A program made the position numbers and the translations under genes. The notes beneath the pieces are model-generated. The model saw nothing but the letters and a program-made list of their open reading frames with translations. It made no database searches and was not told the DNA's origin. A stretch of 64,000 bases of DNA from Candidatus Taenariivivens baikalensis (GTDB taxonomy: Bacteria > Omnitrophota > Omnitrophia > Omnitrophales > Aquincolibacteriaceae): contig SICL01000005.1 of assembly GCA_009691445.1 (NCBI GenBank), forward strand, positions 2,446 through 66,445, read 5' to 3'. Of the stretch, positions 21,680 through 61,155 are shown piece by piece. Position 1 is the first letter of the stretch; the number at the start of each line of letters is the position of its first letter.

Positions 21680-22957
21680 ATGAAAAAAATCGCAGTCGTG
21701 AATGGTATCCGCACCCCTTTTATCAAGGCGTGGACACTTTTTGAAAAAATGCCCGCCCAAAAGCTGGGTGCTCTTTGTGTGACGGAGCTCCTTCAGCGTA
21801 CCGAGATTGATCCCAAAAAAATTGATGAAGTCATCATCGGATGCGTGGGCCAGCCCATTGACGCGGCCAATGTTGCGCGCGTGATCAGTCTTTATGCCGG
21901 AATTCCCAAGGATAAGCGGGCCTACACCGTGAATCGTAATTGCGCCTCCGGCTTTGAGTCCGTAACTAGTGCCATTGAAAAAATCAGCATTGGCCAGGAT
22001 GAAATCGTGATCGCGGGCGGTGCTGAGTCCATGTCGAATGCGCCGCTGGTTTATAATGCGCAAGCCACGGCCTTATTTCTCAAACTTCAGCGCGCCAAAA
22101 CTTTGGGCCAGCGCCTCCAGATCATGCTTCAATTTCGCCCCAAGCATTTTGCCCCGGTGTCTGCTCTTCAGTGTGCTCTGACCGATCCAGTTTGCGGTCT
22201 GAATATGGGACAGACCGCGGAAGTGATTGCCAAAAAATTTGCCATTCCCCGCGAAAAGCAAGATGCCTTTGCGTTGGAAAGCCACAAACGCGTGGCGGCG
22301 GCGCGTGAGCGTTTGCGCGAAGAAATGATGACGGTTTTTATTCCTCCCGATTACGAAAAATTTGTTCAGGATGACAATGGCGTTCGTGAAGGCCAGAGTA
22401 TGGAAATGCTGGCTAAACTTAAACCGGCTTTTGATCGGTTCAGCGGATCTGTGACCGCTGGAAATTCCTCCCAGCTTACAGACGGGGCCTGTGCGCTTCT
22501 ATTAATGGAGGAGGGTAAGGCTAAGTCTCTCGGTTATGAAATTCTTGGAACCATCCGTGCGTACGATTATGTGGGTCTTGAACCCAGCGAAATGGGGCTT
22601 GGTCCCGCGTATGCGATCGAAAGTGTTCTGAGGAAATCCGGGCTGGGGCTCAAGGATATCCAGCTTTTTGAAATGAATGAAGCTTTTGCGGTTCAAGTGC
22701 TTGCGTGCGTAGAAGCGCTCGGCTCTAAAAAATTTGCGGAACAAAATTTTCCGTCGCGCCAGATTGTGGGCGAGATTGATCCTGCGCTTTTGAATGTGAA
22801 CGGTGGCGGCATTGCGCTTGGGCATCCCGTAGGTGTGAGCGGTTCGCGGCTGATCCTGACTTGTCTGAAAGAAATGAAACGGCGCAATCTGCACCGCGGT
22901 CTTGTCTCGCTTTGCATCGGCGGCGGGCAGGGCGGAGCGGTAATCCTAGAAAGGTGA
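21680..22957 (+). CDS. fadI: Acetyl-CoA C-acyltransferase (3-ketoacyl-CoA thiolase, FadI/FadA-like).
   Basis: Active-site Cys region VNRNCASGFESV and C-terminal CIGGGQGGAVILER thiolase signature. Confidence 0.85.
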   Translation: MKKIAVVNGIRTPFIKAWTLFEKMPAQKLGALCVTELLQRTEIDPKKIDEVIIGCVGQPIDAANVARVISLYAGIPKDKRAYTVNRNCASGFESVTSAIEKISIGQDEIVIAGGAESMSNAPLVYNAQATALFLKLQRAKTLGQRLQIMLQFRPKHFAPVSALQCALTDPVCGLNMGQTAEVIAKKFAIPREKQDAFALESHKRVAAARERLREEMMTVFIPPDYEKFVQDDNGVREGQSMEMLAKLKPAFDRFSGSVTAGNSSQLTDGACALLLMEEGKAKSLGYEILGTIRAYDYVGLEPSEMGLGPAYAIESVLRKSGLGLKDIQLFEMNEAFAVQVLACVEALGSKKFAEQNFPSRQIVGEIDPALLNVNGGGIALGHPVGVSGSRLILTCLKEMKRRNLHRGLVSLCIGGGQGGAVILER

Positions 22958-23099
22958 CATCGAAGATGTCATCCCCGAATGATTCAGTTGGTGATCTAAA
23001 AAACAGCCTGGATTCCCGATATCCGTCGAAGGACGCATCCGCGGTGCTCTCTGGCGAAAAAGATTTCGGGAATGACAAATTGTAGTAAGAAGTTTAAAT

Positions 23100-25220
23100 A
23101 TGGAAACCCTGATGAGCACAGCCTGGCAATTAAAAATTGAAGACGGAATCGGGCAGCTGGTTTTTGACCATCCCGGTAGTGAAGTCAATATCCTCACCTC
23201 CGAGAATCTGCGAACGCTCAAAGAAGCCCTCGTTGAAATCCACAAACGAAATGATCTGAAAGCCCTGCTTTTCACCAGCGCCAAGAACCGGATCTTCATC
23301 GCCGGCGCGGACATCAACGAAATCAATAAAATTTCCACGAAGGACGAAGCCTTCCGCGCAGCCGAAGCGGGAAAAGAAGTTTTTCAGTTGATTGAAGACC
23401 TGAAAATCCCGACCGTAGCTGTGATTAACGGGGCCTGTCTTGGCGGAGGCTACGAGCTGGCTCTTTCCTGCCGCTACCGCGTGGCTGCATTTTCCGACAA
23501 GGTGAAGATCGGGCTTCCGGAAGTGAACCTTGGAATTCTTCCCGGATTTGGAGGAAGCATCCGCTTGCCGCGCTTGGTGGGACTTCTTAAAGCGCTTCCT
23601 TTGATTCTTGCCGGGCAAGTCGTTTCAGCAGAGTCTGCACTAAAAAATGGAATGGTTGACCGTTTATTTTTTGAGAAGACGCTTGTCACGGACGCAATCC
23701 GATTTATCCAGGGAATTCTATCGCGCGGGCCGGAAAAGAAACGTAAGAAAGATTTGATGACGAAGATTCTGGAAGACACTCCGTTGGGCCGTAATTTTGT
23801 GTTCACGCAGGCGCGTAAGGATGTTCTAAAAAAAACCAAGGGCGTTTATCCCGCACCACTTGAGATTATTGAACTGATCCGCAAAACTTACGGGATGAAA
23901 TCCAAAGAAGCCTTCCGGCTTGAGAGTGAACATTTTTCGCATCTGGGAACCACGGAAATTTCCAAGAATCTGATCCGGCTTTTCTTTTTAAGCGAGAAGT
24001 ACAAGAAACTGCGCTGGACGGAGGCGGACATTGCCTCCGATAGTGTGGAAAAATGCGGCGTGATCGGGGCGGGCGTGATGGGCGGAGGGATTGCCCAGCT
24101 TGTGAGTAATCGCAGCATTCCGGTTCGTGTCAAAGATCTCAACGAAAAGGCGATTTCTGGTGCGCTCAAAGAAGCGAGTAAGATCTACAAAGATGCTTTG
24201 AAACGCCGGAAAATCAAAAAACATGAAATGGAATTAAAGATGGGCCTTATTTCTGCGGGGCTGACGAGTGCGGGTCTCAAGCGCTGCAATATCATCATCG
24301 AAGCGGTGGTTGAAGATCTTGGCATCAAACAGAAAGTTTTCCGCGAACTCAGTGAGGCTGCCTCTCAAGACGTCATTCTCGCGTCCAACACGTCGTCGCT
24401 TTCCGTGACTAAAATGGCGGAAGTCTGTAAGTTTCCGGAACGTGTGGTGGGTCTCCATTTTTTTAATCCTGTAAACCGGATGCCTCTTGTGGAAGTGATT
24501 CGTGCGGCCAAGACTTCGGACGAAATCGTGGAACGTACCGTTCAATTTTCCCGTCGATTAGGGAAAACCGTGATCGTGACGGCGGATAAAGCAGGATTTT
24601 TAGTGAATCGTCTTTTGCTTCCTTATCTAAATGAAGCCGCTTATTTGATGCAGGAGGGAATGTCTCCGGAGCGGCTCGATGCGATTGCGGAAAAGTTTGG
24701 GATGCCGATGGGTCCGATTGAGCTTGTGGATCAGGTCGGAATTGATGTCGGCTATAAAGTGGCGCATGTGCTTGAAGATGCGTTCGGAGCGCGGATGAAA
24801 GTGGCGAAAATTCTGGAAGACGTGAAACAAAAGGGACTTCTCGGAAAAAAATCAGGCAAAGGATTTTATCTTTACCAAGGGAAAAAGAAAACGTTGAATC
24901 CTGAGATCAAAACTGTCGGAGGTTCGCGGGTTTCCGACGAAGATGCCCTGAAGCGGATGATCTACATTATGATCAATGAAGCCGCGCGCTGCCTCGAAGA
25001 AAAGGTGATCGATAGTGCCGCAACCGTGGATATCGGGATGGTGATGGGAACTGGGTTTCCTCCTTTCCGCGCGGGATTGCTTGCTTATGCGGATTGTGTT
25101 GGCTCGGGGAATATCCTTCGCGACCTTGAACGTTTCGCAAAAGAAGTCAATGCTGATCGTTTTGAACCCAGCGCCTACCTTCGGATTCTCGCACAAAAAA
25201 ATGGAAAGTTTTATTCCTAA
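23100..25220 (+). CDS. fadJ: Fatty-acid oxidation complex alpha subunit (enoyl-CoA hydratase / 3-hydroxyacyl-CoA dehydrogenase, FadJ/FadB-like).
   Basis: N-terminal crotonase fold (FIAGADINE, GACLGGGYELALSC). Central NAD-binding GVIGAGVMGGGIA. 3HCDH C-terminal domain. Follows the thiolase directly. Confidence 0.9.
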   Translation: METLMSTAWQLKIEDGIGQLVFDHPGSEVNILTSENLRTLKEALVEIHKRNDLKALLFTSAKNRIFIAGADINEINKISTKDEAFRAAEAGKEVFQLIEDLKIPTVAVINGACLGGGYELALSCRYRVAAFSDKVKIGLPEVNLGILPGFGGSIRLPRLVGLLKALPLILAGQVVSAESALKNGMVDRLFFEKTLVTDAIRFIQGILSRGPEKKRKKDLMTKILEDTPLGRNFVFTQARKDVLKKTKGVYPAPLEIIELIRKTYGMKSKEAFRLESEHFSHLGTTEISKNLIRLFFLSEKYKKLRWTEADIASDSVEKCGVIGAGVMGGGIAQLVSNRSIPVRVKDLNEKAISGALKEASKIYKDALKRRKIKKHEMELKMGLISAGLTSAGLKRCNIIIEAVVEDLGIKQKVFRELSEAASQDVILASNTSSLSVTKMAEVCKFPERVVGLHFFNPVNRMPLVEVIRAAKTSDEIVERTVQFSRRLGKTVIVTADKAGFLVNRLLLPYLNEAAYLMQEGMSPERLDAIAEKFGMPMGPIELVDQVGIDVGYKVAHVLEDAFGARMKVAKILEDVKQKGLLGKKSGKGFYLYQGKKKTLNPEIKTVGGSRVSDEDALKRMIYIMINEAARCLEEKVIDSAATVDIGMVMGTGFPPFRAGLLAYADCVGSGNILRDLERFAKEVNADRFEPSAYLRILAQKNGKFYS

Positions 25221-26193: not shown

Positions 26194-26289
26194 GGACAGC
26201 GCTCATCGACTCATGCGTATTTGTCAAATTTTGTTAAAAGTAATCAACGAATATGATTCAATACGACGGCTTCAATGAGACCTGTCCCT
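26192..26289. repeat. Family-3 hairpin variant (GGGACAG-CGCTCAT ... ATGAGAC-CTGTCCC).
   Basis: Imperfect inverted repeat. The right arm contains the ATG of the CYTH gene. Confidence 0.55.
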
Positions 26290-26799
26290 GGCTCCTACGA
26301 AATCGAACAAAAATACCGGATCAAAAATCCAAAAGTAATTCGTGCGGCCCTCAAAAAACTGGGAGCCCGGAAAATCGCTTCCGGATTTGAGAGTAATGAG
26401 CTTCTCGACCGGAAAGGGGAGCTGCGGAGAAAAAAATCTGTGCTCCGTCTTCGCCAGTACGGAAAGTCCACGATTCTGACGTTTAAAGGCCCGCGCCTGA
26501 AGGTGAAAGGATCCTACAAGAAGCGCGTCGAGATTGAAACGGACGTGGAAGGTGTGAGCGCCAAGGGGATTCTTGAAGCGCTGGGCTACAAAACTTTTTT
26601 CCATTATTCCAAAACCCGTGAGCAATATAGCTACTCTTCGTGCTCCATCGTTCTCGATCATCTTTCCAAACTGGGATGGTTCCTTGAGATCGAAGGTTCT
26701 CCGTCTAGAATTGGCCGTATTGCCAAGCAACTTAAGTTTCAAAAATCAGACGAAGAGCCTCTCTCCTATCCGCAATTGTTGAGTGTCGAGATTAATTAG
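26275..26799 (+). CDS. CYTH-domain protein (CyaB-type class IV adenylate cyclase or triphosphate-tunnel metalloenzyme).
   Basis: N-terminal YEIEQKYRI is the CYTH ExExK signature. About 170 aa with alternating K/E strands (LRLRQYG...LTFKGP...KRVEIET). The first 5 codons (MRPVP) are encoded by a repeat arm. Confidence 0.65.
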   Translation: MRPVPGSYEIEQKYRIKNPKVIRAALKKLGARKIASGFESNELLDRKGELRRKKSVLRLRQYGKSTILTFKGPRLKVKGSYKKRVEIETDVEGVSAKGILEALGYKTFFHYSKTREQYSYSSCSIVLDHLSKLGWFLEIEGSPSRIGRIAKQLKFQKSDEEPLSYPQLLSVEIN

Positions 26800-26981
26800 A
26801 TTCTCCCCATTTTTTTTCTTCAGCCTCTTAGGTCCGCATTTCGTAGGTAGAAAGAAACAAATTTGTAGATATTTTTTATAATAACGATTAATTAATATTA
26901 AAATAGTCATATTATCGCCAAAACGGGCGAAAAATAAAAAAAAACAGGTTGGCATGTTAATTGTAGTAATAGGTTTATCTT

Positions 26982-29900
26982 ATGAGAAACCGAAGGGTAG
27001 AATTACTGACGCATTTTGGGAGCATTGGTTCAAGCCTAAAACAGGGTGCTTTTTCATGTCCGGATAATAAACGCATTAAAAAAGAATTTAAAACCAGTAC
27101 CCGCTTATCTTTTCCAAAGTTTTCTCTCCATCGGTTGACCTATGATATCTCCAAGCCCCGTCCCTCACTAAAATTCCTGTCCTTCGTCCTGCTTTTGACA
27201 TTCTCCATTCAGGCCTTCGGCTGGGCGGAGACCGGACAAGTCTTCCCGGGATCGATTCGAATGCATCCGGTGGAAAATATTTTTCCGGAAGTGACGCAAG
27301 CGCCGAGCTCTTTTTTTATCCCGCCGTCCTTCGGAGAAATAAAAAAATCATTCACAGGATCCCGGGAAGAAAAAATTATCCTGATCCAGGACGCTCATGT
27401 TCATGAAGAGGCGCAGAGGAATATCGCACAAATGCTAAATTTTCTTTCCCGGGAGAAGAGGCTTCACCAGATTTATGTTGAAGGGGCTGAAGGTGTGATC
27501 GATATGACGCCTTATTCCTTTTTCCCTGATCTGAAGATCCGCCAGGAAACGGCGGATTATTTCCTCACAAAAGGAAGGCTCACTGGGGCGGAATACGCCG
27601 CCATCGTTACCACACCGGTATTATCCCTTTATGGTATTGAAAACCGCCAGGTCTATGAAAATCACCGGAAGGTTTATTTGGAAGGAATTGAAATCCAGAA
27701 AAAAAATCAGGCAATTCTGGAACCGCTTGGGAAGGCCCTTAAAGAAATGGCCCGTTTTGCCATGTCGCCGGAAGTCATGGAGTTTTACCGCAAGACAGGG
27801 TTTTTAGAACCCCAAGAAAAGGACTGGAATCTTTACTTTGACGAATTGCTTCGACAAGCTGGATTTCTGGGAATTGCTATTGATTCGGATTCGCAGATGA
27901 AAACCATGGAACGCCTTTCGGCACTTGGAAAAGAGATTGATTTGAAAAATCCGGATGCGGATCTTAAAAAGTTTCCTGAAACTGAAAAAACCCGGCAAGG
28001 CAGGCTTCAATACCAGGAATATCTCCGGCTTTCCAAGAAAATTTCCGGGGATTTTTTTACGGAAGCCTACGGACTTGAAAAAAAAATTAAGAGGATGCTT
28101 TTAAAGACTCCGGAGGAAAAACGGCTGAATGATTTTTTGGAAGTGGTGGAAATTTACAGAAAATTTTTTGATTTTTCCCTAACGACTCAGGAAGTGGAAT
28201 GGTTTTATTCCCGTCGTTTGAAATGGGACATGAAAGCCCTGCGTGATTTCTTGACGCCTCTGCTGAAGCGTTATCACTTCACCTACGAACTTCCTTTGTC
28301 TCTGGAGTCCATGGATCAGGATCTGTTGCGGATAGAAAAATTCTACCTTTTAGCTTTGGACCGTGATCGTATTCTGATTCAAAATGCTATTGGACACATG
28401 AAGACGACGGGCCTTAAACAAAGTGCGGTTATCACCGGTGGTTTTCATACGCCCGGGATTGAAAAATTTCTCCGGGAACAGGGCTATTCTTATGTTGTGG
28501 TGAGTCCCCGCATGACTTCCATCCCAGATGTTAAAAAGCAAGAAGCTCTCTACCGGCAAGCCGTTCTAGGACGTCCTTTGCTTGTAGAGAAAATTCTTGT
28601 TTCCCTGGATCTGTCGCGCCAAGCGCCGATGAAGGATTTGCAGTATCAAATGACGCCATGGCTGATGACACCCAATCCAAAATTTTCTTATCCATTTATC
28701 TGGCTTGAGACGGTAAGAGGTATTTTTAAATCAGGAAATCCAGACGTATTGTTTCATCGCCTTAAGATTGCGGCGGACAAGCTTCCTCCTGGTTCCAGAA
28801 AAGAGGCAGATGCGGTTTATCATGAGTTAGAAGGGGGCGTTCTTCAATCTTCAGAATCCGGAATGCAATATTATTGGAGAAAGATGTCGCAAGGAATTTT
28901 TTTGCGGCTTACAGCGGGCAGTAACAAAAAAATACCGAACCGCTCAAGAGGGGGGAAAAGCGGCAAAGAAATTTTCCCCCTGATTGATTTTGGTCATGAC
29001 TGGTTGGAAGGCGATCAAGTTGATTCCGATCTGGTCTCTAATGAAGTTGTGAGGATTCTATCCTCCGATTTGCCGTCACGAATCCCGTTGTTGATGGGAC
29101 GAAGCAGTGATTCATTCCAAAAACGTTCCGAAGTGCGAAGTCCATCCGTGACTTCAGCTCTCAAGCGCGGTACGAGGACGACCGCCGATTTAAATCTCCA
29201 GTTAGACGATTTGTGGAAGCCCATGGATGCTGAATTAGAAAAAGCGACTGGTGTTTCCTTAGACCGGCGTGCTTCGGGGGAGACTTTGTCGGGAGCTGCG
29301 GTCGGTGAAGATTATCTGGATAAAGCCTATGTCGTTGCTTTTTTGTGGGGACTAGGCTGGACGACACTTTCGCTGTTCCACATTTTTCCAGTCACCTTTA
29401 TTTCAGGGGTCCTGTTTTTTTGGGCCTTTACACTTGGAAACTTTCTTTTTAAGATTTTTGCCCATGAATGGGTGCATGCTTTTTTTGCCCGAGTATTTGG
29501 CGCTAAAGAAGCCTTAACGATTAAAAATTTAACCGGAAATCTCGGATGGGATTTTCTAGGGGGAATGGTCCTGTTTCCCTTGCTTCGGTATCCCCGGGTT
29601 AATGTGCCGTCGATTCAAGGGACTCTGCGCGAAACCTTTGCACTGAAAGTGGCCTTTCCGGTCCATCTGATGGCAGTTGCAGCGCTCTACTTACACCGCG
29701 GAGAAGTTTTGGATTGGCTTACTCCCTTAGTCAGCGGCATTACTTCGGATCCTTTCCTTCTTTCCTGGCTCCTTTTTAGTTTTATCGGAGGCGGGATCTT
29801 ATCGGTCGCCGAAGGGTTTTACTCTGATTATTTAAACAAAAAACGAGAATCGGGCGAGCTTGCCTGCGGAGTCTCCTCGGTGATCACGATTCTTCGTCCG

Positions 29901-32900
29901 GACGGAGAGGCCCTGCGCATTCATTTTGATTACGGCTATGACAAAACAGATTTCGAAATCTTTATGGAAGGGGCGGAGAATCAATCGCGTCATCAAAAAG
30001 GAATTCACGACGGACGTTTGGGAGACACCATTGAGTTTCGCCGTAAGCGATTAAGAAAAATCCTGAGTGAAGTTGCTCCTGACATTGAAGTGCCCGAGCG
30101 GCTTTTTGACAATTACTTCCGGATTGTGGACAAAGTTCGCGACCGGGGAGACCAGGCGAGCGGGGAAGTCTCCATGGTCACGGCCGGAGGAGGAAGGGTT
30201 ATTTTTGAAGTCACCGGACACGGACGCTTTTTAAGCGCGGGAACCATGAGTCAAGAAAACGCTCAGCTTCATCAATGGTCTCCCACTGAAGAAATTAATT
30301 ATGTGGGCGTGAACCAGGGCAAGTATGAAGTGCTAAGGCGCAACCGGGCCCTTTATGTTCCGCATAACGGCGACGGCAATGTGTTTAAGGTTTCGGGCCG
30401 GTGGCTGGGAACAGGGCTCGTAAGAACGCTTCTCTTTAATGTTTTTCATATGAAGCATCCCGCGAGCTCGGATACTCCGATAGTTGCGGGATTTATGGAA
30501 TATTTTTTGACCCAGGGGAGTCTGAAGTTTTCCGCGCGGTTTGCGTTTGCAGAAACCATGACAGAGCTGCCCGCGTCTTCCCCGGAATCAATTAAGGGAT
30601 GGTTCAAGGACAAATGGGCGAGATTTAAAGAGCGCCGGGGTTGGTACAATTTTAGCCGTTCGATTTATCCTTCTCCCGAACAGTTGAGCGTGTGGGAAAG
30701 AGAAGCGTTTTTGCCGGCTTTCCGGAGATTTGCCTCTTCCGGCGGACAAGCCCCTTCCGGTTTTTATCTGTCGTCCATGTCTCCCGCAGATCGTCGAACC
30801 TTAGCGGATTTATTTGAGCGTGAGATCCTGAAAAAAGCGGACTTGTTTGTTCAGCCGGTTTTTTTCGATCCAGCTAAGCGAAAGTTGTTTTTAGAAACCA
30901 TGGTCAATGCTTTTTGCGACCAGGATTTTGAGCAGGCAAGTTTGATGGCGAAAAAAAGAATGAAAGGGACTTTTGGGGTGCGGCCTGTTTATTCCCTTGA
31001 GCCGGGGACGATGATCGCGATTTCGGACAGCCAGGGAATGTTTTTTGGCATTAATCCGGGTGAGACCTCACAGCAGGGTCCTGAAGTTTACGCAGCTTCC
31101 GAACCAGCGGCGTTTAAGGAACGTTTCGAGGTCAACGGACGTTTGCAGCAGCTCCCTTACCGGATTGGCCTTAATTCGACACGAGGCGATGTGGTGATCA
31201 TGAAGTTTGAAAATAATCCTCTTCGCAAACCGACGGAACCTGCCCTGGGAGTTTATGGATACGCGACCAATGAAAAGAGTGACCAGCATCCCCTGGGCCG
31301 GCCCTTAACGGACCGGGAGCTTTATGAAATGACGGCTTTGATTCCCGGCAATCCGATGCTGAGTGTTCCGGAGCCCAAAAAAGACGGCAAGGCCACAGTC
31401 GCCCATGATCTTGAGAAAATTTCGGGGGTTGTGGCCAGGATTGACGCGGATTGGCAGCAAAACGATGCGCTACCGGTTTTGGAGCAGAGTTTCAACCGTC
31501 AAAGCGGTTTTGAGTTTCTGCGTCTGCTCATGGTGCTTGAAGCGTTTAAAAGGCTCCAGGCAGCAACGGGACGTCTGCTTTCCGATCCTAAAGACCGCGC
31601 TCGGATTCAGAAAAAGTTTTTCGCCTTGATCACTCTTTTTTATTTTGGCAATACTTCGGGGCAGAGGATCACTCAGAGTGCATTTCAAACCCGGTATCTT
31701 AAAATTTTCAATTTTGAGCTTCAACAGATTTTGGGACCTTCCGCCGCACCCGCGTACAACCGGTTCGAGGATTTAAAAGGCCTGGATGATCTACTCCCAG
31801 GCACTAAAGAAGTGGACATCTTGATTCCGGCCGTCCATATCAGTCTTGTAAGCGCCGTTAAAATCAAGGCGCGTCTTGAAAAGTGTTTTCCGATTCTCAA
31901 TATCCAGCTTCCGGATGCTAATCATCTTTTGGAATCTTTGAAACAGAAAGTGATTTATCAAGGCGACCGGAAGGTCGTGGTGAAAGACAAGAATGAAGTG
32001 GAGTACATCATTACCGCGGATACGATCAGCATTCACGATTCCATTTCCGGAATGACCTTTCCAACTTATAAAACTTCAGAACCAATGGAAGTCCTTTTGA
32101 ATGCGTTAAATCAGAATCAGGGGACACCCTTTTTGGGCCAGAGAGTTTGGGGATTCGCCGGAGAGCATGACACCTTGATGGCGGAAAGTGCCTTAGGGCA
32201 GGGTTTTTATAAAAACGCTCCGTTTAAACGTCATACCTTCAGCACGTTGAGCGGACCGGGAGAAGCGGAACCTGCGACCGTGACTTCCATCTCTCAGGAT
32301 CATACGCTGACCCGCCTCAGCGAATTTTTGGTCACTCAAATGCAGCGGGCTTACGGCACGGAGGTCCGGCCTTTTGGGACGCTGGTGGATCAAGATATTT
32401 TACAAACAACCAATGAATTTATCCGTGAATCTCAGGAAAAGCATCTTCCGGAAATAACAAATAAAAACGGGTCGGTGGCCCGGCAGTTTTATCAAGTCGG
32501 AAAAGGACTGCTCTGGTATCTGCTGGAAAATCCGATCGGGACGCTTGCGGCTATTTTAATTTTTGCTGTGGCGATGAGCTTTGGAATCTCCATTGCGCCC
32601 TCGGCCACCATCATTGATCCGCTGATGCAGGTTTTTCCAGCATTGCGGGAAATCTCGTGGGTGATGAAATTGATCGGCCTTTTCTTTAATGTCACCTTTG
32701 TGCCAGGCTTGGGATATGTGATCGGACGTGTGATTGGAAAAGCGATGGGGAGATATCCGACTTCTCTGCGTTTCGGAGGAACGAAAATTTTTATCGCTTC
32801 CGATTTTCATGAAAGCTCTTCATTTCGCATTGAGCAGTTTGTCATGAAGCTTTGGTCCAAGGCCTGGGGATTTATGGATGTTAATACCTTTTTTGGAGAT

Positions 32901-35021
32901 AACACGAGCAGTTCTGCGCATAATCATACGGCCCGTGGTCCGCATAAAAATGCCTTTATTTTGATGATGGGTCCTGAAAGCGGGCTTGTGACCTACGACG
33001 GCCACGACGGAGCAAAAAATATGTCGAAAGGCCAAGCGGGAGGGAATCAGAGCAAGTCGCGGGGAGTCGGCCCCGTCTTTTTGTGGGTGGCAAGGCAGAA
33101 TGCCGAAGGAAGTCTGACGCCCGGCCTTCAAGATCCATATGCCTCGACTTATTTGCGCAAAGGTCAAACTCGCCAGCCCAAAGCGGTTTATCAGCTCGTC
33201 CTGCCGGCGTTCAGCCGTCCTGTGAACCTGCCGGAAACGACGATTCAAAAATTTACTGCTCAAATCACGGAACGGCTCGGCCTTGACGCGCCGCGGCAGG
33301 CACTATTGACGCAAAGACTTCGTGACTGGAGGACGCTTTACTTGAGTCAATATCAATACAATGTGCCGCAGATGATTCTGGATATCGCCACTGAACTTAA
33401 AATTACGCATGAAACTAAGCTTGTTTTTTTTCAGAAAACCCTGCGGACTTTTCACGGGAAGATAGAAATCCTGGAAGAGTTTTTTGAAAATAGCGTGAGC
33501 GCGATTGAGCGGGAAGTGGCGGCTTATGCGTTGATGCATCAAATAACCGAATGGGCAAGCTTGGGCGGACGACTTTGGAATTTCAATGAAACCCATTCTC
33601 GCCTCAAACGGGCCTCCACGGCCGGTCCAGTGGACGGAGAAGCGGTCACTCAGTTGATTGCCAATATCCGACGAGAATTTGAAATTTTAACGGATAATGC
33701 CCACCTTCATGTTCCGCTTACGCAAGTGGAAAAGGCGGAACTACCCTTTCATATTATTGATCCGGTTCGATTAAAAGCTCCGGTTCCGGAAGAAGTCAGT
33801 TCGATGGTCACCGTGCAAAATTCGAGAAAAAAAGCTAATCAATTACTTAGACAGCTCCATGATCAAGTCCCAACTCGTTATGACGTTTTGGTCAGCGCCG
33901 TCAAAAAATTCATTTTAACGGAAGAGGGGAACATTGAGAGAGTATTTAACCGGCTGGGAGATTCTCTGATCAATGGGGATACGATGGTGGTTGATTCACG
34001 CCTAAAAAATGATATCGCCCGTTTTCAGACAATGACTCGATTATCCAGTTATTCCCAAAACAAGCTTGTTCAAGAGTTGATGGCGGTAGTCCCGGGATAT
34101 CTCGATGCACTTTTCGTTCATTTTTCAACGCATCACCATGATGCGTTGCGTGTCTCTTTCGATCTGAAACCAGTTTTAAATCGTCCGGCTCCGGCTGATT
34201 CCGGAGAGCAACCTGCCCAAAGTTATATGGCACCGCCACCCAAAAAAATCCGCAAGACTCCCTCCTCGGGAGCTCGCCGGAAAAAGGCGGAAAGGGTTTC
34301 TGGGACAGCGAAATCCCGAACAATTCTAAAACCAGTGATTGCGGGCGGGAAAACTCACACGGAAGTAGCGAAGGGGAACGCGGATAGCCGCTCTGAACTT
34401 CGTCTGACAAGCGAGTTATCTCAAGCGGTTGACGTTCGATCGCAAATAGAGTTTGAAACCGCTCCGGTTATCCGTGAGATGCGCCTGCGCGCAAGCAAGA
34501 TCGAGCGGATGCTTCAGACCTGGGGACAAAATCCAAAAGTACTGGCGAAGCTTGGAATTTCGCGGACGGTGCCTGGCGTTGGGTATTACTTCCTGGACTT
34601 CAGCCAGCAATCAGGAATCGGGACGATTGAGAACTTGCTTCGTTTCCGCAATCCGGAAGTCAAAGCCGTGGTTTTTGCCGGTGCTGCCGAACGTTCTGAA
34701 TTAAGAAAAACATTTTCTCGTCAAGTTCAGGCCGAAGCGCTTCTTCTTCCGGAAGCCAGTATCGAAACATTTCTCGGAGAAAAAATGTCCGAGCTAGGAT
34801 TCGGCTCGGATCAAGTGATCCAGGTTCAGGGACTGCACGCGGACCGTCTTGATGAAGAGCAGATCAGGGCCTTGCGTGGAAGTCTTACGCTTGCGCTGGG
34901 GCGGATTGTGATTGACTCTGAACGTTCCGTCCACGGTGCGGGAAGAGAAGTTTCCTTCAAGAATATTCTGGATGCCGTGAATCAGGCGGCTTATCAGGCG
35001 GTCGTTCGTCAATCCGCGTAA
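26982..35021 (+). CDS. Giant 2,679-aa polytopic membrane protein of unknown function (TraB/GumN-like motif pair, HExxH-containing TM cluster, G/R-rich low-complexity segment).
   Basis: An uninterrupted 8,040-nt ORF in a roughly 50% GC background cannot arise by chance. It has an N-terminal hydrophobic segment (LKFLSFVLLLTFSIQAFGWA), a 5-helix TM cluster around 29320-29830 containing FAHEWVHAFFARVFG, and a second TM cluster around 32500-32740. No Walker, kinase or other canonical motif was found. Confidence 0.6.
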   Translation: MRNRRVELLTHFGSIGSSLKQGAFSCPDNKRIKKEFKTSTRLSFPKFSLHRLTYDISKPRPSLKFLSFVLLLTFSIQAFGWAETGQVFPGSIRMHPVENIFPEVTQAPSSFFIPPSFGEIKKSFTGSREEKIILIQDAHVHEEAQRNIAQMLNFLSREKRLHQIYVEGAEGVIDMTPYSFFPDLKIRQETADYFLTKGRLTGAEYAAIVTTPVLSLYGIENRQVYENHRKVYLEGIEIQKKNQAILEPLGKALKEMARFAMSPEVMEFYRKTGFLEPQEKDWNLYFDELLRQAGFLGIAIDSDSQMKTMERLSALGKEIDLKNPDADLKKFPETEKTRQGRLQYQEYLRLSKKISGDFFTEAYGLEKKIKRMLLKTPEEKRLNDFLEVVEIYRKFFDFSLTTQEVEWFYSRRLKWDMKALRDFLTPLLKRYHFTYELPLSLESMDQDLLRIEKFYLLALDRDRILIQNAIGHMKTTGLKQSAVITGGFHTPGIEKFLREQGYSYVVVSPRMTSIPDVKKQEALYRQAVLGRPLLVEKILVSLDLSRQAPMKDLQYQMTPWLMTPNPKFSYPFIWLETVRGIFKSGNPDVLFHRLKIAADKLPPGSRKEADAVYHELEGGVLQSSESGMQYYWRKMSQGIFLRLTAGSNKKIPNRSRGGKSGKEIFPLIDFGHDWLEGDQVDSDLVSNEVVRILSSDLPSRIPLLMGRSSDSFQKRSEVRSPSVTSALKRGTRTTADLNLQLDDLWKPMDAELEKATGVSLDRRASGETLSGAAVGEDYLDKAYVVAFLWGLGWTTLSLFHIFPVTFISGVLFFWAFTLGNFLFKIFAHEWVHAFFARVFGAKEALTIKNLTGNLGWDFLGGMVLFPLLRYPRVNVPSIQGTLRETFALKVAFPVHLMAVAALYLHRGEVLDWLTPLVSGITSDPFLLSWLLFSFIGGGILSVAEGFYSDYLNKKRESGELACGVSSVITILRPDGEALRIHFDYGYDKTDFEIFMEGAENQSRHQKGIHDGRLGDTIEFRRKRLRKILSEVAPDIEVPERLFDNYFRIVDKVRDRGDQASGEVSMVTAGGGRVIFEVTGHGRFLSAGTMSQENAQLHQWSPTEEINYVGVNQGKYEVLRRNRALYVPHNGDGNVFKVSGRWLGTGLVRTLLFNVFHMKHPASSDTPIVAGFMEYFLTQGSLKFSARFAFAETMTELPASSPESIKGWFKDKWARFKERRGWYNFSRSIYPSPEQLSVWEREAFLPAFRRFASSGGQAPSGFYLSSMSPADRRTLADLFEREILKKADLFVQPVFFDPAKRKLFLETMVNAFCDQDFEQASLMAKKRMKGTFGVRPVYSLEPGTMIAISDSQGMFFGINPGETSQQGPEVYAASEPAAFKERFEVNGRLQQLPYRIGLNSTRGDVVIMKFENNPLRKPTEPALGVYGYATNEKSDQHPLGRPLTDRELYEMTALIPGNPMLSVPEPKKDGKATVAHDLEKISGVVARIDADWQQNDALPVLEQSFNRQSGFEFLRLLMVLEAFKRLQAATGRLLSDPKDRARIQKKFFALITLFYFGNTSGQRITQSAFQTRYLKIFNFELQQILGPSAAPAYNRFEDLKGLDDLLPGTKEVDILIPAVHISLVSAVKIKARLEKCFPILNIQLPDANHLLESLKQKVIYQGDRKVVVKDKNEVEYIITADTISIHDSISGMTFPTYKTSEPMEVLLNALNQNQGTPFLGQRVWGFAGEHDTLMAESALGQGFYKNAPFKRHTFSTLSGPGEAEPATVTSISQDHTLTRLSEFLVTQMQRAYGTEVRPFGTLVDQDILQTTNEFIRESQEKHLPEITNKNGSVARQFYQVGKGLLWYLLENPIGTLAAILIFAVAMSFGISIAPSATIIDPLMQVFPALREISWVMKLIGLFFNVTFVPGLGYVIGRVIGKAMGRYPTSLRFGGTKIFIASDFHESSSFRIEQFVMKLWSKAWGFMDVNTFFGDNTSSSAHNHTARGPHKNAFILMMGPESGLVTYDGHDGAKNMSKGQAGGNQSKSRGVGPVFLWVARQNAEGSLTPGLQDPYASTYLRKGQTRQPKAVYQLVLPAFSRPVNLPETTIQKFTAQITERLGLDAPRQALLTQRLRDWRTLYLSQYQYNVPQMILDIATELKITHETKLVFFQKTLRTFHGKIEILEEFFENSVSAIEREVAAYALMHQITEWASLGGRLWNFNETHSRLKRASTAGPVDGEAVTQLIANIRREFEILTDNAHLHVPLTQVEKAELPFHIIDPVRLKAPVPEEVSSMVTVQNSRKKANQLLRQLHDQVPTRYDVLVSAVKKFILTEEGNIERVFNRLGDSLINGDTMVVDSRLKNDIARFQTMTRLSSYSQNKLVQELMAVVPGYLDALFVHFSTHHHDALRVSFDLKPVLNRPAPADSGEQPAQSYMAPPPKKIRKTPSSGARRKKAERVSGTAKSRTILKPVIAGGKTHTEVAKGNADSRSELRLTSELSQAVDVRSQIEFETAPVIREMRLRASKIERMLQTWGQNPKVLAKLGISRTVPGVGYYFLDFSQQSGIGTIENLLRFRNPEVKAVVFAGAAERSELRKTFSRQVQAEALLLPEASIETFLGEKMSELGFGSDQVIQVQGLHADRLDEEQIRALRGSLTLALGRIVIDSERSVHGAGREVSFKNILDAVNQAAYQAVVRQSA

Positions 35022-35022
35022 A

Positions 35023-35119
35023 AGCGAGGGAAGAGAGAAGAGGGAAGAAGGAAGTAAAAATTCCCGTTTCTATTTTTTTTCTCTTCCCTCTTCTCTCTTC
35101 TCTCTTCCTTCTTCCCTCT
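35023..35119 (+). repeat. Polypurine/polypyrimidine mirror repeat ((GA)-rich 35026-35054, T8, (CT)-rich 35081-35119). Candidate long hairpin terminator or H-DNA-forming tract.
   Basis: GAGGGAAGAGAGAAGAGGGAAGAAGGAAG ... TTTTTTTT CTCTTCCCTCTTCTCTCTTCTCTCTTCCTTCTTCCCTCT. The arms are largely reverse-complementary. It sits immediately after the giant ORF stop. Confidence 0.5.
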
Positions 35120-36573: not shown

Positions 36574-36659
36574 GGGTAAAGCCTATTTACTTCGTCCATT
36601 GACAGGCATGTCCAAAACGTATACACTTCTTTACAACTGTATACACTTTGGACATACCC

Positions 36660-37262
36660 ATGAAAACCAAGAAAGAAGAATTGATAGCGGAATTTAAGCG
36701 TCACAAGGGAATCCTGCGCTTCTCAGCCATGCTCAAGTCCGGATTCCACCGCCTTGAGATCAAATCGCTTATTGAGTCGGGAGAAGTCGAAAAAATTGGC
36801 CGGGGAATTTACCGCCTTAAAAACGGTCCAAGCCTTTCTAACCCTGACCTTGTTACCGTCGCACTCCAAGCCCCGAAAGGGGTGATATGCCTTATTTCCG
36901 CCCTCAGTTACCACCATGCCACGGATGAAGTGCCGCACAGCATTTATGTGGCGATACCGCGAGGAGTTCGCGCAACCAAGATTGATTACCCGCCAGTGCA
37001 ATACTTTCGCTATGACCCAACGGTTTGGAAGAATGGGATTGAAACGCATACCATAGACGGACATCCAGTTAAAATCTACAGCCTTGCAAAGACCGTTGCC
37101 GACTGTTTCAAATATCGCAACAAGATCGGCCTCGACGTGGCCCTCCAAGCCCTGAAACTTGCTGTAACCGAAAAGAAAACTAAACCAACCGAAATCATGC
37201 GCTTCGCCATAATATGCCGCGTGGATAAAGTCATCAGACCTTATGTGGAGTCTCTCCTTTGA
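36660..37262 (+). CDS. Type IV toxin-antitoxin AbiEi-family antitoxin / transcriptional regulator.
   Basis: N-terminal winged-helix GILRFSAMLKSG...IEKIGRGIYRL plus a C-terminal domain typical of AbiEi. ATG at 36660. The track start at 36648 is TTG. Direct repeat GTATACACT x2 at 36620-36649, immediately upstream. Confidence 0.7.
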   Translation: MKTKKEELIAEFKRHKGILRFSAMLKSGFHRLEIKSLIESGEVEKIGRGIYRLKNGPSLSNPDLVTVALQAPKGVICLISALSYHHATDEVPHSIYVAIPRGVRATKIDYPPVQYFRYDPTVWKNGIETHTIDGHPVKIYSLAKTVADCFKYRNKIGLDVALQALKLAVTEKKTKPTEIMRFAIICRVDKVIRPYVESLL

Positions 37263-38179
37263 AGCCCGACATTAAAAATATCGAAGCGTCCGTCAAGGGA
37301 CGCCTCCAGAACAAGGCTAAAGAAACAAACCGTCCTTACTCGGAAGTCCTCCAGTATTACGGAATGGAACGGTTTCTTTACCGTTTCTCGCAGTCCGATT
37401 ATGCCGGGCAATTCATTCTCAAAGGTGCGTTGATGTTCACCGTGTGGGACGTTCCCGCGCGAAGGACAACGGTGGATATTGATTTTCTAGGCCGTATTGA
37501 TAACAAAGTTGAAAGTATCGAAGGCGTCATTCGCGATGTCTGCAAGATAAAAGTACCGGCTGACGGACTTGTTTTTGACGCTAAGACTGTGAAGAGTAAA
37601 CGAATCAAGGAAGATGCTGATTATGAGGGCGTGCGCGTCAATTTTTTCGGCTTTCTCGAAAAATCAAAAATCCCAATCCAGATCGATGTCGGCTTCGGCG
37701 ATGTGATAACTCCCAAGGCTTCAACGATTGACTACCCAACGATTCTGAATTTTCCGGCACCGCGCCTTGAGGGTTACACTTTTGAAAGTGTTGTGGCCGA
37801 GAAATTTGAAGCCATGATCAAGTTGGGCCTCCTTAATAGCCGCATGAAAGACTTTTATGACATTTGGCTGATGACCCGGCAAATGAACTTTGAGGGAAAA
37901 AAGCTGGCCGCCGCAATCAAGGCAACCTTCAAGAATCGGGAAACACCGCTTCCTGCGAACGTTCCGCTTTTCGCCGAAGAAATTTACGACGAGAAATCAA
38001 ACAACGAAGCCATGTGGAAAGCCTTTCTGCGCAAGAAGCAAATCAAAACCGCACCCGATAGCCTTGCTGAGGTTGCCCGAGGCATCGAGGTTTTTCTTTC
38101 GGAACCCGTGAAGGCTATCACAACCGGCAAGGAATCATCAAAGACGTGGCACGCGCCGGGGCCGTGGGTTAGAACCTGA
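37259..38179 (+). CDS. AbiEii/AbiGii-family nucleotidyltransferase toxin (DUF1814).
   Basis: 306 aa. Overlaps the AbiEi stop by 4 nt. GFGD...IDVGFGDVITP NTase-like motifs and a DUF1814-type C-terminus. Confidence 0.75.
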   Translation: MKPDIKNIEASVKGRLQNKAKETNRPYSEVLQYYGMERFLYRFSQSDYAGQFILKGALMFTVWDVPARRTTVDIDFLGRIDNKVESIEGVIRDVCKIKVPADGLVFDAKTVKSKRIKEDADYEGVRVNFFGFLEKSKIPIQIDVGFGDVITPKASTIDYPTILNFPAPRLEGYTFESVVAEKFEAMIKLGLLNSRMKDFYDIWLMTRQMNFEGKKLAAAIKATFKNRETPLPANVPLFAEEIYDEKSNNEAMWKAFLRKKQIKTAPDSLAEVARGIEVFLSEPVKAITTGKESSKTWHAPGPWVRT

Positions 38180-39118: not shown

Positions 39119-39454
39119 GTGGGCGAAGAAATTTATCAGCTGGTTTATTATGAAGATCCCGGTGGAAAGAAGCCCTACCGCGAATGGTTTGAAGCTTTAA
39201 GAGATGTCAAAGCTCAGGCGGTCATTGATGCGCGTTTGGGACGTCTGCGTTTAGGGAATTTCGGAAAATGCGAGCCGGTTGGCCACGGAGTTTACGAATT
39301 GAAGATTTATTACGGCCCCGGCTACCGGGTTTATTTTTCGAGAGCCGGAAATCAGATTCTTCTTCTTTTATGCGGAGGAGACAAATCACGCCAATCCGAA
39401 GATATTCATAAGGCTCAAACGCACTGGCTGCAGTATAAAGGACCGAGATCATGA
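39119..39454 (+). CDS. RelE/ParE-superfamily toxin (HigB-like addiction-module killer protein).
   Basis: 111 aa. The start is GTG. It matches the killer-protein family (YYEDPGGKKPYREWF...RLGNFGKCEPVGHGVYELKIYYGPGYRVYF). Overlaps the downstream antidote by 4 nt. Confidence 0.75.
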   Translation: MGEEIYQLVYYEDPGGKKPYREWFEALRDVKAQAVIDARLGRLRLGNFGKCEPVGHGVYELKIYYGPGYRVYFSRAGNQILLLLCGGDKSRQSEDIHKAQTHWLQYKGPRS

Positions 39455-39768
39455 AAGAAAAAAAGAATGGAAACTACAAACAAGATTTGATGAAGCGCCT
39501 GCAAAACGCAGAATTTGCTGAAACCTATTTAAACGCGGCTTTTGAAGACGAAGATAAACATGTCTTTTTACTTGCGCTCCGGGATGTGACGGAGGCTCGG
39601 GGCGGAATGGGAAGGATTGCGCGGCTTACCGACATTAGCCGCGAGCATATTTACCGGATGCTTTCAGAAAAAGGAAATCCGGAGCTGGAAACTCTCAAGA
39701 AATTGCTGAGTGCCTTGAATCTCAAGATTTCGATTTCCACAAAAGACCAGGATCGTAAAGCGGCTTAA
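39451..39768 (+). CDS. HigA-like addiction-module antidote protein (HTH).
   Basis: 105 aa. AETYLNAAFEDED...LLALRDVTEARGGMGRIARLTDISREHIYRMLSEKGNPELETLKKLLSALNL is the antidote-protein family signature. Confidence 0.75.
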   Translation: MKEKKNGNYKQDLMKRLQNAEFAETYLNAAFEDEDKHVFLLALRDVTEARGGMGRIARLTDISREHIYRMLSEKGNPELETLKKLLSALNLKISISTKDQDRKAA

Positions 39769-45521: not shown

Positions 45522-46802
45522 TTAAGCCTTCTTAAACTGCTCCGCCTCCGTCGATCCCTTCATACTAAACGTCGATGATTGCCCGCCCGTGGCGATTTGA
45601 GTCACGGCATCAAAATAGCCGGTTCCCACAAATTCCTGATGCTTCACGGCTTCATAGCCCAGCTTTTCTGCGGCAAATTCCTCTTCCTGCAGTTCGGAAT
45701 AGGCGGCCATTCCTTTGGTTTTGTAATCCTTGGCCAGCATAAACATACTGTAATTGAGCACGTGAAATCCGGATAAAGTCACGAACTGGAATTTGTATCC
45801 CATCTTTCCCAGCTGTTCCTGAAACGTTTCGATGGATTTCTCGTCCAGATTCGATTTCCAGTTAAAGGACGGCGAGCAGTTATAGGCAAGAAGTTTTCCT
45901 GGGAATTTTTTATGGATGGCTTCCGCGAAAGTTTTGGCCTGTTGCAGATTGGGTTTGGAAGTTTCAAACCAGAGCAGATCCGCGTAAGGTGCGTACGCAA
46001 GTCCGCGGCTGATGGCTTGATCCAGTCCGGCTTTGACCTGATAAAATCCTTCATGCGTCCGGGTTCCATAGATAAAGGGCTGATCATAAGGATCCACGTC
46101 GCTGGTCAGAAGGGAAGCGCTGTCCGCATCCGTACGTGCGATCAACATTGTATCGACGCCGCAGACATCCGCGGCTAAACGCGCTGCAATTAACTTGGTG
46201 ATAAATTCCTGGGTCGGAACCAAAACTTTTCCTCCAAGATGCCCGCATTTTTTCACCGAGGCTAGCTGATCTTCAAAGTGAACGCCCGAGGCTCCTTCTT
46301 CGATCATCATCTTCATGATTTCAAACGCGTGAAGCGGTCCACCGAATCCGGCTTCGGCATCGGCCACAAGCGGCGCAAGCCAGTGAATGCTGTGGTCATC
46401 CTTGAGATGATGGATCTGATCTGTGCGCATCAGGGAATTATTGATCCGCTTGATCAGATAGGGGACGCTGTCGGACGGATAAAGACTTTGATCCGGATAC
46501 ATGCGCAGGGAATTATTCATGTCGGCCGCAACCTGCCAGCCGCTGACATAAATGGCTTTGAGTCCGGCCTTGACCTGCTGAATGGCTTGATTGCCCGTGA
46601 CCGCGCTTAGAACATGAACATAGGACTCATCATTCAGGAGCTGCCAGAGACGTTTGGCGCCGGCTTTGGCAATGGAGTATTCCCGGTGAATGGTGCCGCG
46701 AAGACGAAACACGTCCTCCGGTTTATAGGTACGCGTCACGCCTTTCCAGCGCGCCGAAGTTTTCCATTCCTGTCCAAGCTTTACGGTTTCGTTTAGATCC
46801 AT
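45522..46802 (-). CDS. aceA: Isocitrate lyase.
   Basis: Active-site KKCGHLGGK, plus [11 protein letters not shown] and ARTDA. 426 aa. Confidence 0.92.
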
Positions 46803-46827
46803 AAAATCTCCTTTTGAATTTTAGGCT

Positions 46828-47049
46828 GTCATTGCCCGCCAGAGGACGGATCCGTCCTTCGGCGGACGAGTCCCGCGCTTTGGCGGAGACGCGGCAATCT
46901 GACACGAAGTGTCATCCTGAACGAAGTGAAGGATCTCAGGATAAACTCCGCGACGGATCTCATTCCGAGATTCTTCACTTCGTTCAGAATGACAAAAAAC
47001 GTCAGATTGCTTCCTGCCTACCGGCAGGCAGGCGCTCCGCTCGCAATGA
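46828..47049. repeat. Family-1 compound repeat between aceB and aceA.
   Basis: GTCATTGCCCGCCAGAGGACGGATCCGTCCTTCGGCGG...GGCGGAGACGCGGCAATCT...CTCAGGATAAACTCCGCGA...GGCAGGCAGGCGCTCCGCTCGCAATGAC. Confidence 0.8.
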
Positions 47050-47058
47050 CAATGATTG

Positions 47059-60133: not shown

Positions 60134-60228
60134 AAGTGCATTTTACACAAAAAGGCTCATTGAAAGTAGCCTTCTTTCAAGGTATACTTAGTATGAAAGT
60201 AGGAAATAGTAGGAAAATAGGAGGAAAT

Positions 60229-60920: not shown

Positions 60921-61155
60921 TATCTTCCCAGGAGACCACCCGTATGAATTCCGTCAAAAAGCATTTCGCAAAATGACTCACTTCATAACATTCACTAACA
61001 ATCCCGCCTAGAAACGTGCTTAATCGAAGAAGAGCCGCCTTGCGTTTACATTAAACAGTGCGCCTGATCCATGTTAAAGAAATCCGCTTCACCTCTTGTA
61101 ATTTTCCAGAGGGAAGGGTAGAATTTTCTTCAAATTCACTCCTGGAGAAAGACGC

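Follow-up and report, generated by a model that had tools for sequence, protein, structure and literature searches.

In the 64,000-nucleotide (nt) window analysed here, the whole stretch of contig SICL01000005.1 of Candidatus Taenariivivens baikalensis (Omnitrophota) that was examined, a single 8-kb open reading frame (ORF) encodes a protein of 2,679 amino acids (aa), which we interpret as a membrane-tethered glutamine amidotransferase precursor that would be activated by cleavage before an internal cysteine, Cys962 (probability about 0.6). The overall architecture can be given with high confidence: the polypeptide is built of two independently widespread modules and a lineage-specific tail. 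The first module is an N-terminal head, and the second is a cassette with a fixed order of parts, namely a four-helix membrane domain with HExxH and Asp, a Cys-Gly pair, an amidotransferase domain, a SIS domain, a membrane hairpin, and conserved blocks. The cassette is a GlmS-like enzyme built into the membrane, and the protein as a whole represents a new combination of known kinds, including a GlmS-type amidotransferase, a site-2-protease-like domain, and a TIKI-fold hydrolase. The parts of the gene are the following (supporting evidence in brackets):

26982..35021, + strand: complete ORF, 2,679 aa plus stop codon (single ATG-to-stop frame)
27165..27233, + strand: hydrophobic helix, aa ~62-84, with a K/R-rich tail before it (sequence, hydropathy scan)
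27306..28616, + strand: head, or N-terminal module, aa ~109-545 (AlphaFold2 fold, family alignment)
28617..29321, + strand: charged, Ser-rich, poorly conserved linker, aa 546-780 (predicted local distance difference test score, pLDDT, <50 beyond model residue 452)
29322..29834, + strand: four-helix membrane domain, aa 781-951 (AlphaFold2 helices, family alignment, Pfam)
29463-29477, + strand: HEWVH, H828-H832, in helix 804-838 (AlphaFold2 model)
29865..29870, + strand: Cys962-Gly963, predicted nucleophile of an N-terminal nucleophile (Ntn) enzyme (hhalign to GlmS Cys1)
29865..31481, + strand: class-II (Ntn) glutamine amidotransferase domain with large helical insertions, aa 962-~1500 (model, family profile)
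31794..32486, + strand: SIS (phosphosugar-binding) domain, aa ~1605-1835 (model, family profile)
32508..32744, + strand: two-helix membrane hairpin, aa ~1843-1921 (hydropathy scan, AlphaFold2)
32745..33761, + strand: post-hairpin region, aa 1922-2260 (family conservation)
33762..35018, + strand: mainly helical C-terminal tail, aa 2261-2679 (alignment, hydropathy scan)

The 8-kb gene is real. Its translation is 100% identical to the NCBI entry 'MAG: hypothetical protein EXS63_02735 [Candidatus Omnitrophica bacterium]' (MAG, metagenome-assembled genome). Four orthologues of 2,667-2,722 aa from other assemblies are colinear with it from end to end at 25-29% identity, two further orthologues match it over part of its length, and two orthologues were found on their own contigs, each as one uninterrupted gene. 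An assembly chimera or a frameshift-fused ORF, for which the unusual length and the MAG origin speak and nothing more, is refuted by these orthologues, since at least four further assemblies or data sources, each independent of this one, contain a colinear orthologue of almost equal length; its chance is negligible. The content of guanine plus cytosine (GC) is likewise uniform along the ORF (47.9%), and 2,679 stop-free codons would arise by chance with a probability of about 1e-62 given the ORF's own base composition. No tandem repeats were found inside the ORF, and neither an internal duplication nor a paralogue elsewhere in the window. The initial annotation of this DNA, made from the sequence alone, was thus right to see a real and very large gene, and the possibility it had raised of an ORF split by re-sequencing is excluded.

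Pfam, NCBIfam, and PADLOC returned zero matches for the 2,679-aa protein even at permissive thresholds, and sequence searches of the PDB with the protein itself and with a 7-sequence full-length orthologue profile gave nothing meaningful. These empty results agree with the earlier description of a polytopic membrane protein beyond the reach of standard hidden Markov model libraries, and full-length homology to a characterised family was not found, the homology to GlmS being partial and remote. The accompanying statement that the protein has 'no canonical domain architecture' holds for direct sequence searches but not for the central third, where a GlmS-type module (class-II amidotransferase plus SIS), clear though divergent, had been missed. 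Nor is the protein 'poorly conserved', as both main modules belong to large families.

According to the structural model and the family profiles, the middle third of the protein is a remote homologue of GlmS with intact glutaminase site and phosphate loop. The AlphaFold2 model of aa 780-1960, built with 47 homologues (pLDDT 77.7; predicted template modelling score, pTM, 0.73), contains the four-layer Ntn glutaminase fold. All 33 Foldseek matches at E <= 1e-3 were to GlmS or human GFAT-1, with PurF and SIS proteins next. When aligned by hhalign with E. coli GlmS, whose reference sequence was verified against 4amv and 1jxa, a 147-sequence family profile was colinear at E 6.8e-5; a 6-sequence profile gave just a 45-column local match with a probability of 5%. 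The alignment with the larger profile pairs identical residues of GlmS / GFAT and the present protein, including C1 with C962, H71 with H1080, R73 with R1082, N98 with N1129, and G99 with G1130 in the glutaminase part, as well as D123 with D1164, S347 with S1687, S349 with S1689, and T352 with T1692. The SIS phosphate loop comprises S1687, S1689, G1690, and T1692. R1055-G1056 are also kept and correspond to GlmS R26-G27 by the 'RGxQxxG' motif only, as hhalign puts R26-G27 at Q1005-K1006 because of a query-specific insertion. Each of the catalytic columns is kept by 125-151 of the 153 homologues, and S1373-E1374 are conserved family-wide too. In the alignment of orthologues the GlmS-like motifs read 'CCGNYG', 'RGEQAGG', 'GHSRYGTSS..PH', 'THNGDFD', 'GDTPK', 'WASEAAALK', 'SQSGQTFPT', and 'AEPSTVA'.

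In NCBIfam, seven of seven tested stand-alone homologues matched only the two GlmS models, in local matches with E of 1e-5 to 8e-7 for most of them and 0.003 for a partial protein, with scores of 13-28 bits against cut-offs of 381-418 bits for TIGR01135 / NF001484, and the query had no match. Scores so far below the cut-offs argue that the module is not a GlmS orthologue. Pfam detected nothing at E <= 0.01 in the first 10 shorter cassette homologues scanned; longer homologues have weak matches at the expected places (GATase_6 0.006, GATase_2 0.07, SIS 0.011). The module further differs from GlmS by an identity of only 10-21%, by 100-190-aa insertions within the amidotransferase domain, by the position of its nucleophile Cys behind a membrane domain, by the membrane hairpin after the first SIS subdomain, and by the lack of a detectable second SIS subdomain and C-terminal lid.

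The hairpin is present in most homologues. The initial annotation had placed a cluster of 3-4 helices at about 32500-32740; the membrane cluster is there, with two helices rather than 3-4. Behind it come two blocks whose conservation extends across the family, aa ~1922-2050 and ~2160-2260. The first of them looks by eye like a second SIS subdomain, a candidate supported by neither hhalign (E 0.2-0.8 for the post-hairpin block, whether compared with GlmS or with the SIS1 profile of this family) nor NCBIfam, which found nothing in six post-hairpin segments. The tail, which makes up the last ~420 residues, is common to close orthologues only, and it contains the basic patch PPPKKIRKTPSSGARRKKAER at aa ~2416-2436, as originally reported.

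The idea of a precursor comes from the position of the nucleophile. A class-II amidotransferase needs its catalytic Cys as residue 1 of the mature chain, and here the equivalent residue is number 962, immediately before a beta-strand that starts at aa 963 in the model. We surveyed 94 homologues with at least 200 residues upstream of this point. Cys-Gly was found in 90 of them and RGxQxxG in 86, a membrane helix lies no more than 80 residues upstream of Cys-Gly in 78, and HExxH lies no more than 260 residues upstream in 63. Four other homologues, with almost no upstream sequence, open with 'MCGN...', which is the canonical exposure of Cys1. A known precedent is Bacillus subtilis PurF, an Ntn amidotransferase made with a propeptide. 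As in PurF, the catalytic Cys is not primary residue 1 and the upstream part must go; unlike in PurF, the 'propeptide' would be 961 residues long and carries a hydrolase-like head and a protease-like membrane domain.

This membrane domain immediately precedes Cys962. In the model its helices span aa 781-797 (low confidence), 804-838, 882-904, and 924-951, so that the 5-helix cluster with HEWVH reported earlier comprises four long helices plus short ones rather than five, while HEWVH does lie within a membrane helix. HExxH is invariant among 14 aligned family members. Asp949 ('SD'), at the end of the last helix and 13 residues ahead of the invariant Cys-Gly, is nearly invariant among the same 14. 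Pfam Peptidase_M50 (PF02163) matches five of 14 homologues (best E 3.3e-5) and M50B two of 14, and profile searches of the PDB gave three matches, all to RseP-type site-2 proteases, at E 0.2-1.7. Such sub-threshold matches support with moderate confidence that aa 781-951 form a site-2-protease-like (M50-like) domain. It shares with site-2 proteases such as RseP the HExxH in a membrane helix, and its conserved Asp, in a later membrane helix, is a candidate for their third metal ligand, for which the M50 motif is 'LDG' while the motif here is 'SD'. In contrast to site-2 proteases, every match falls below family thresholds, no PDZ domains are present, the domain and its putative substrate are parts of one chain (a fusion in cis), and its cyanobacterial branch has HGxxH.

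On these grounds, we propose that the precursor would be cut between Ala961 and Cys962, either autocatalytically, in the manner of other Ntn enzymes, or by its neighbour in the chain, the site-2-protease-like domain, which is an obvious candidate. The freed N-terminal Cys962 would hydrolyse glutamine, with R1082 and D1164 holding the substrate and N1129-G1130 serving as the oxyanion hole, and the ammonia would be passed to a phosphorylated sugar-like acceptor on the SIS domain at the membrane surface. We regard the protein as a putative glutamine amidotransferase zymogen with moderate confidence; our assignments of the activating protease and of the acceptor substrate carry low confidence.

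Several observations weigh against this interpretation. The query is without a Pfam, NCBIfam, or PDB sequence match, and the assignments depend on predicted structures and family profiles; in particular, the support for M50 is sub-threshold, with no PF02163 match for the query itself. The Cys962 nucleophile is internal, the domain would be inactive unless cut, and the cleavage is purely inferred. Cyanobacterial cassettes have H-G-x-x-H instead of H-E-x-x-H while their Cys-Gly is still internal, and HExxH stands upstream in just the 63 of 94 homologues counted above; cleavage by the membrane domain therefore cannot be a general rule, and Ntn-type self-cleavage is at least as likely a candidate for the general mechanism. 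A second SIS subdomain with GlmS isomerase residues was not detected by hhalign or NCBIfam, so that the chemistry of glucosamine 6-phosphate synthase is unsupported. Finally, the topology is not self-consistent between signal peptide, helix count, and charge, as described below. In GlmS, the second SIS subdomain carries the isomerase residues K485, E488, and H504, and the lid carries Lys603.

The failure to detect these isomerase residues would fit a module that binds glutamine and/or a sugar phosphate without turnover, as a sensor or pseudo-enzyme in nutrient-sensing signalling, with the site-2-protease-like domain acting in regulated intramembrane proteolysis, by which part of the protein would be set free or inactivated. 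SIS is often a ligand sensor in RpiR/MurR/NanR regulators, which were found among the structural matches, site-2 proteases such as RseP are classic signalling proteases, and a Ser/Thr kinase with a periplasmic binding domain is encoded directly upstream of one cyanobacterial homologue. However, all residues for glutamine hydrolysis are conserved in about 150 homologues, which is unexpected for a pure binding module, and some homologues open with Met-Cys-Gly as active enzymes do. The cyanobacterial branch, moreover, has lost the protease Glu and retains the amidotransferase residues. We consider such a sensor distinctly unlikely and keep the amidotransferase precursor as our preferred interpretation.

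The other widespread module is the head. Its AlphaFold2 model, based on a 32-sequence alignment, is confident for aa ~109-545 (pLDDT 82.9, pTM 0.78) and shows the alpha/beta core of the TIKI/TraB/ChaN/erythromycin-esterase superfamily, split by an all-helical insertion of ~250 aa. Proteins matched by this predicted fold include ChaN, HopBA1, EreA-like proteins, a TraB family protein, EreC, and RRSP. Among 63 diverse members, the residues D137, H139, Q145, E167, G168, G218, E220, and Y225 are invariant, as are R461, G486, G487, H489, and P509. The active-site set of RRSP consists of two His, two Glu, and an Arg, namely E3900-x-H3902, E3930, R4001, and H4030 (PMC6254334). The head has the same catalytic-type spacing, with D137-x-H139, E167 (+28), R461, and H489 (+28), compared to E3930 (+28) and H4030 (+29) in RRSP. 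The TraB/GumN/Tiki-like motif pair suspected near the N-terminus in the initial annotation proved correct, because the head residues match the RRSP motif and spacing; the fold matches and the invariance of the TIKI-type catalytic motif across the family agree with it. On the basis of the model, we assign the head to this superfamily, and as it keeps the His/Asp(Glu)/Glu/Arg/His set, it is probably an active hydrolase, either a peptidase or an esterase. The Pfam superfamily models had no match to the query, and the best result was Cofac_haem_bdg at E 0.19 in one orthologue. Compared to the TIKI/TraB/PrgY/GumN/ChaN/erythromycin-esterase superfamily, with which it shares the acid-x-His...Glu...Arg...His pattern, the head differs in that its first acid is Asp and not Glu, in the helical bundle of ~250 aa inside its fold, and in that it always opens very long multi-enzyme proteins.

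A database search for relatives of the head found 261 proteins. All 119 of the other homologues that were listed share only aa ~60-560 of the query, always at their N-terminus. Head-bearing relatives are 1.5-4.7 thousand aa long and continue into varied enzyme domains, including PGM/PMM, protein kinase, PP2C, class-II amidotransferase, aldolase, FBPase, and transaldolase, as well as PEP-utilising, radical SAM, GGDEF, sigma-70, CsrA, and SecA domains. A hydrophobic segment lies within the first 90 aa in 73 of the 120 listed proteins, query included. In the query, this helix (aa ~62-84) resembles a Sec signal peptide or a signal anchor ('AFG|WA', with 'AHA|FE' in orthologues). The named sources of head-bearing proteins are mostly Omnitrophota, with a few Chlamydiota and Auribacterota. 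In GTDB species representatives (one genome per species), we identified 227 head loci; among the best 80 of these, every named record is from Omnitrophota and the others are labelled 'uncultured bacterium'. Several genomes or MAGs hold at least two head-bearing genes. On CAZEFF010000004.1, for example, two of them (L038, 45453-48955, and L048, 51520-54833) lie on the same strand ~2.5 kb apart.

The PGM/PMM-bearing relatives (P0033-P0053) have a conserved, soluble 'ARHE(L/E)xH(I/L)' motif at aa ~780-840, with 'HPGRGG' before it, ~250 residues past the head. It may mark a separate small metallopeptidase-like domain. We examined the soluble HExxH of these relatives (aa ~790-840) as a counterpart of the membrane helix with HEWVH and rejected it, as the two do not belong to the same domain.

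The two modules can be compared with the longest proteins known from this phylum. Those of at least 10,000 aa in Omnitrophota are described as mostly membrane- or signal-peptide-targeted 'multi-enzyme metabolic clusters' that are rich in sugar-phosphate enzymes (bioRxiv 10.64898/2026.06.07.730766; bioRxiv 10.1101/2023.11.21.568195; PMC10066038), and their N-terminal regions are generally without identifiable domains (bioRxiv 10.64898/2026.06.07.730766; bioRxiv 10.1101/2023.11.21.568195). Neither a TIKI-like head common to such proteins nor the GlmS-like cassette is mentioned in these papers. The head-bearing proteins share with them the phylum, the signal-peptide or membrane targeting, and the chains of normally cytoplasmic enzyme domains in which sugar-phosphate enzymes are prominent. 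In contrast to the catalogued giants (at least 10,000 aa or an ORF >20 kb), the present protein has 2,679 aa and its relatives 1.5-4.7 thousand. It is thus a small relative of the very-long-protein phenomenon. For giant Omnitrophota ORFs, a role as a surface adhesin or coat protein has been generally proposed (PMC10066038). For this protein, such a role is highly improbable: the analysis turned up neither adhesion-type domains nor repeats nor beta-rich arrays, every fold that could be recognised is that of an enzyme, and the length is far below the 'giant' class.

Another explanation is that the chain is an exported polyprotein, in which the signal peptide exports the chain and the TIKI-like head cuts the linkers, like the cysteine protease domain of MARTX, so that the freed enzymes work in the periplasm, at the surface of the cell, or inside a host or prey. 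The head is indeed always N-terminal, behind a signal-peptide-like segment and with a protease-type active site, and many relatives without any other membrane helix carry kinase, PGM/PMM, sigma-70, CsrA, SecA, or radical-SAM domains. In the published view, Omnitrophota probably depend on hosts or live as predators, most of their giant proteins have a predicted signal peptide or membrane targeting, and peptidases at the N-terminus are the suggested cutters (PMC10066038; bioRxiv 10.1101/2023.11.21.568195; bioRxiv 10.64898/2026.06.07.730766). RRSP, an endopeptidase with the TIKI fold, is one of the MARTX effectors (PMC6254334). However, the protein has six further membrane helices and therefore cannot be released whole. 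The head-less cassette occurs in free-living cyanobacteria with a self-consistent cytoplasmic topology, and glutamine-dependent sugar-phosphate chemistry is implausible outside the cytoplasm. The linker between the two modules (aa 546-780), for which no fold was detected, also shows no evidence of cleavage sites. For these reasons export and release of the chain seem rather unlikely to us.

The membrane-tethered precursor, which we continue to favour, raises its own problem of location. The TIKI/TraB superfamily is usually extracytoplasmic. The signal-peptide-like N-terminus would place the head outside the cytoplasm, and with four helices in the membrane domain the GlmS-like module would be outside too. 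In contrast, the charges favour a cytoplasmic module (six K/R in the loop past the HExxH helix and 'KKR' past the last helix), and so do the geometry of site-2 proteases and the head-less cyanobacterial proteins, whose topology is self-consistent. The parity of the helices is uncertain because the first of the four has low confidence. Many head-bearing relatives have no other membrane helix and yet carry domains that require the cytoplasm, and the same puzzle of location has been raised for much longer Omnitrophota proteins (bioRxiv 10.1101/2023.11.21.568195; bioRxiv 10.64898/2026.06.07.730766). We have low confidence in the sidedness of the module, and equally in any role of the head.

A pair of linked ideas would join the two modules. 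The head may be a common maturation or anchoring protease for an entire class of multi-enzyme polyproteins in Omnitrophota and the Planctomycetes-Verrucomicrobia-Chlamydiae (PVC) group, and the cassette may be a self-activating zymogen, in which a cis-fused intramembrane protease of the site-2 type would unmask the N-terminal nucleophile of a GlmS-like amidotransferase. We put this forward as speculative, with a minor chance of being true. To our knowledge, an intramembrane protease paired with an Ntn enzyme has no earlier description. Our literature search, which was limited and is not proof of novelty, found the shared TIKI-like head and the membrane GlmS-like cassette undescribed; it returned no paper tying Omnitrophota to TraB and none that describes a transmembrane protein with amidotransferase and SIS domains.

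The cassette extends well beyond the proteins that carry the head. An exhaustive profile search with the GlmS-like region identified at least 1,336 cluster representatives at E <= 1e-3, including 368 at E <= 1e-30, and many members of the family are 650-1,700 aa long. A head-less version of the cassette is found in cyanobacterial 'hypothetical proteins' of ~1,240 aa, whose named sources include Nostoc, Scytonema, Chroococcidiopsis, Phormidium, Pleurocapsa, Waterburya, and Acaryochloris. We examined one neighbourhood, on a contig of Pleurocapsa sp. (L001, 1467-7580). The gene for the Ser/Thr kinase with a periplasmic ligand-binding domain lies 25 nt upstream of the stand-alone cassette gene, which is followed by a gene for a 294-aa protein without a Pfam match; the neighbourhood contains nothing diagnostic. 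Two cyanobacterial cassette homologues of ~1,590 aa (P0359 and P0381) have an extra region that matches many Pfam families of the WD40/beta-propeller type.

The window neighbours of the gene are ordinary chromosomal genes. The features directly upstream, together with genes found at orthologue loci, are the following:

26800..26981, + strand: AT-rich spacer, 182 nt, 28.6% GC (base composition, promoter scan)
26275-26799: CYTH-domain gene directly upstream (Pfam E 2.3e-14)
L082, 5854-6618 and 15461-16432; L083/L084, 15203-16168 and 16956-18908: histone-deacetylase-family and Peptidase_M48 genes (orthologue neighbourhoods)

Both the spacer, much richer in AT than the ORF, and the CYTH-domain gene had been pointed out in the initial annotation and were confirmed. 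The spacer is probably the gene's own promoter region. It has one sigma-70-like match at 26875-26904, promoter and terminator scans being otherwise uninformative, and the orthologues are likewise preceded by gaps of ~380 nt. A functional link to the CYTH gene or a conserved operon was considered and rejected, as the neighbourhoods of the orthologues differ; the CYTH neighbour is incidental, because it does not stand beside the two examined orthologues. At both of these loci, the gene that comes just downstream is of the histone-deacetylase family and a Peptidase_M48 gene is close by; neither of them is found beside the ORF in the window.

Several other features of the window are recorded here. 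A (GAGGGAA)x4 tandem repeat at 35026-35054 starts 5 bases past the stop codon of the ORF, before a gene for a transporter of the major facilitator superfamily. Two genes downstream of the ORF, at 36648-38179, there is an AbiEi antitoxin and AbiEii nucleotidyltransferase toxin pair (type IV toxin-antitoxin), and a small Gp49/HigB-like ORF (Pfam E 7e-4) with an overlapping 105-aa ORF after it, at 39119-39768, is possibly a second toxin-antitoxin pair. Isocitrate lyase adjoins malate synthase at 45522-48636 on the - strand, forming a glyoxylate shunt, and a thiolase/FadB-like pair is located at 21680-25220. Together they suggest the use of fatty acids or acetate in this Omnitrophota MAG, whereas recent literature calls Omnitrophota metabolically reduced. 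The GC content drops to 0.39-0.42 at 60001-64000 from ~0.48 elsewhere in the window, and this part may be foreign or intergenic-rich DNA.

As a result of this analysis, an unannotatable protein of 2,679 aa is resolved into three testable parts, and two large families are exposed. One of them, the cassette family with its at least 1,336 clusters, is without a Pfam or NCBIfam model. Its occurrence in culturable cyanobacteria (Nostoc, Scytonema, Chroococcidiopsis) makes genetics possible even though Omnitrophota cannot be grown. Control by burying the nucleophile of an Ntn amidotransferase behind a protease-like membrane domain would be new for this enzyme class, and if the zymogen idea is true, membrane insertion or a signal at the membrane would be linked to the chemistry of amino sugars or to some other amidation. 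With the head, hundreds of very long multi-enzyme proteins from Omnitrophota and related bacteria have a first feature in common that can be mutated; the processing, location, and purpose of these proteins are debated in recent literature. If the idea of a maturation or anchoring protease is true, it would explain what happens to very long chains of housekeeping-type enzymes once they have been exported.

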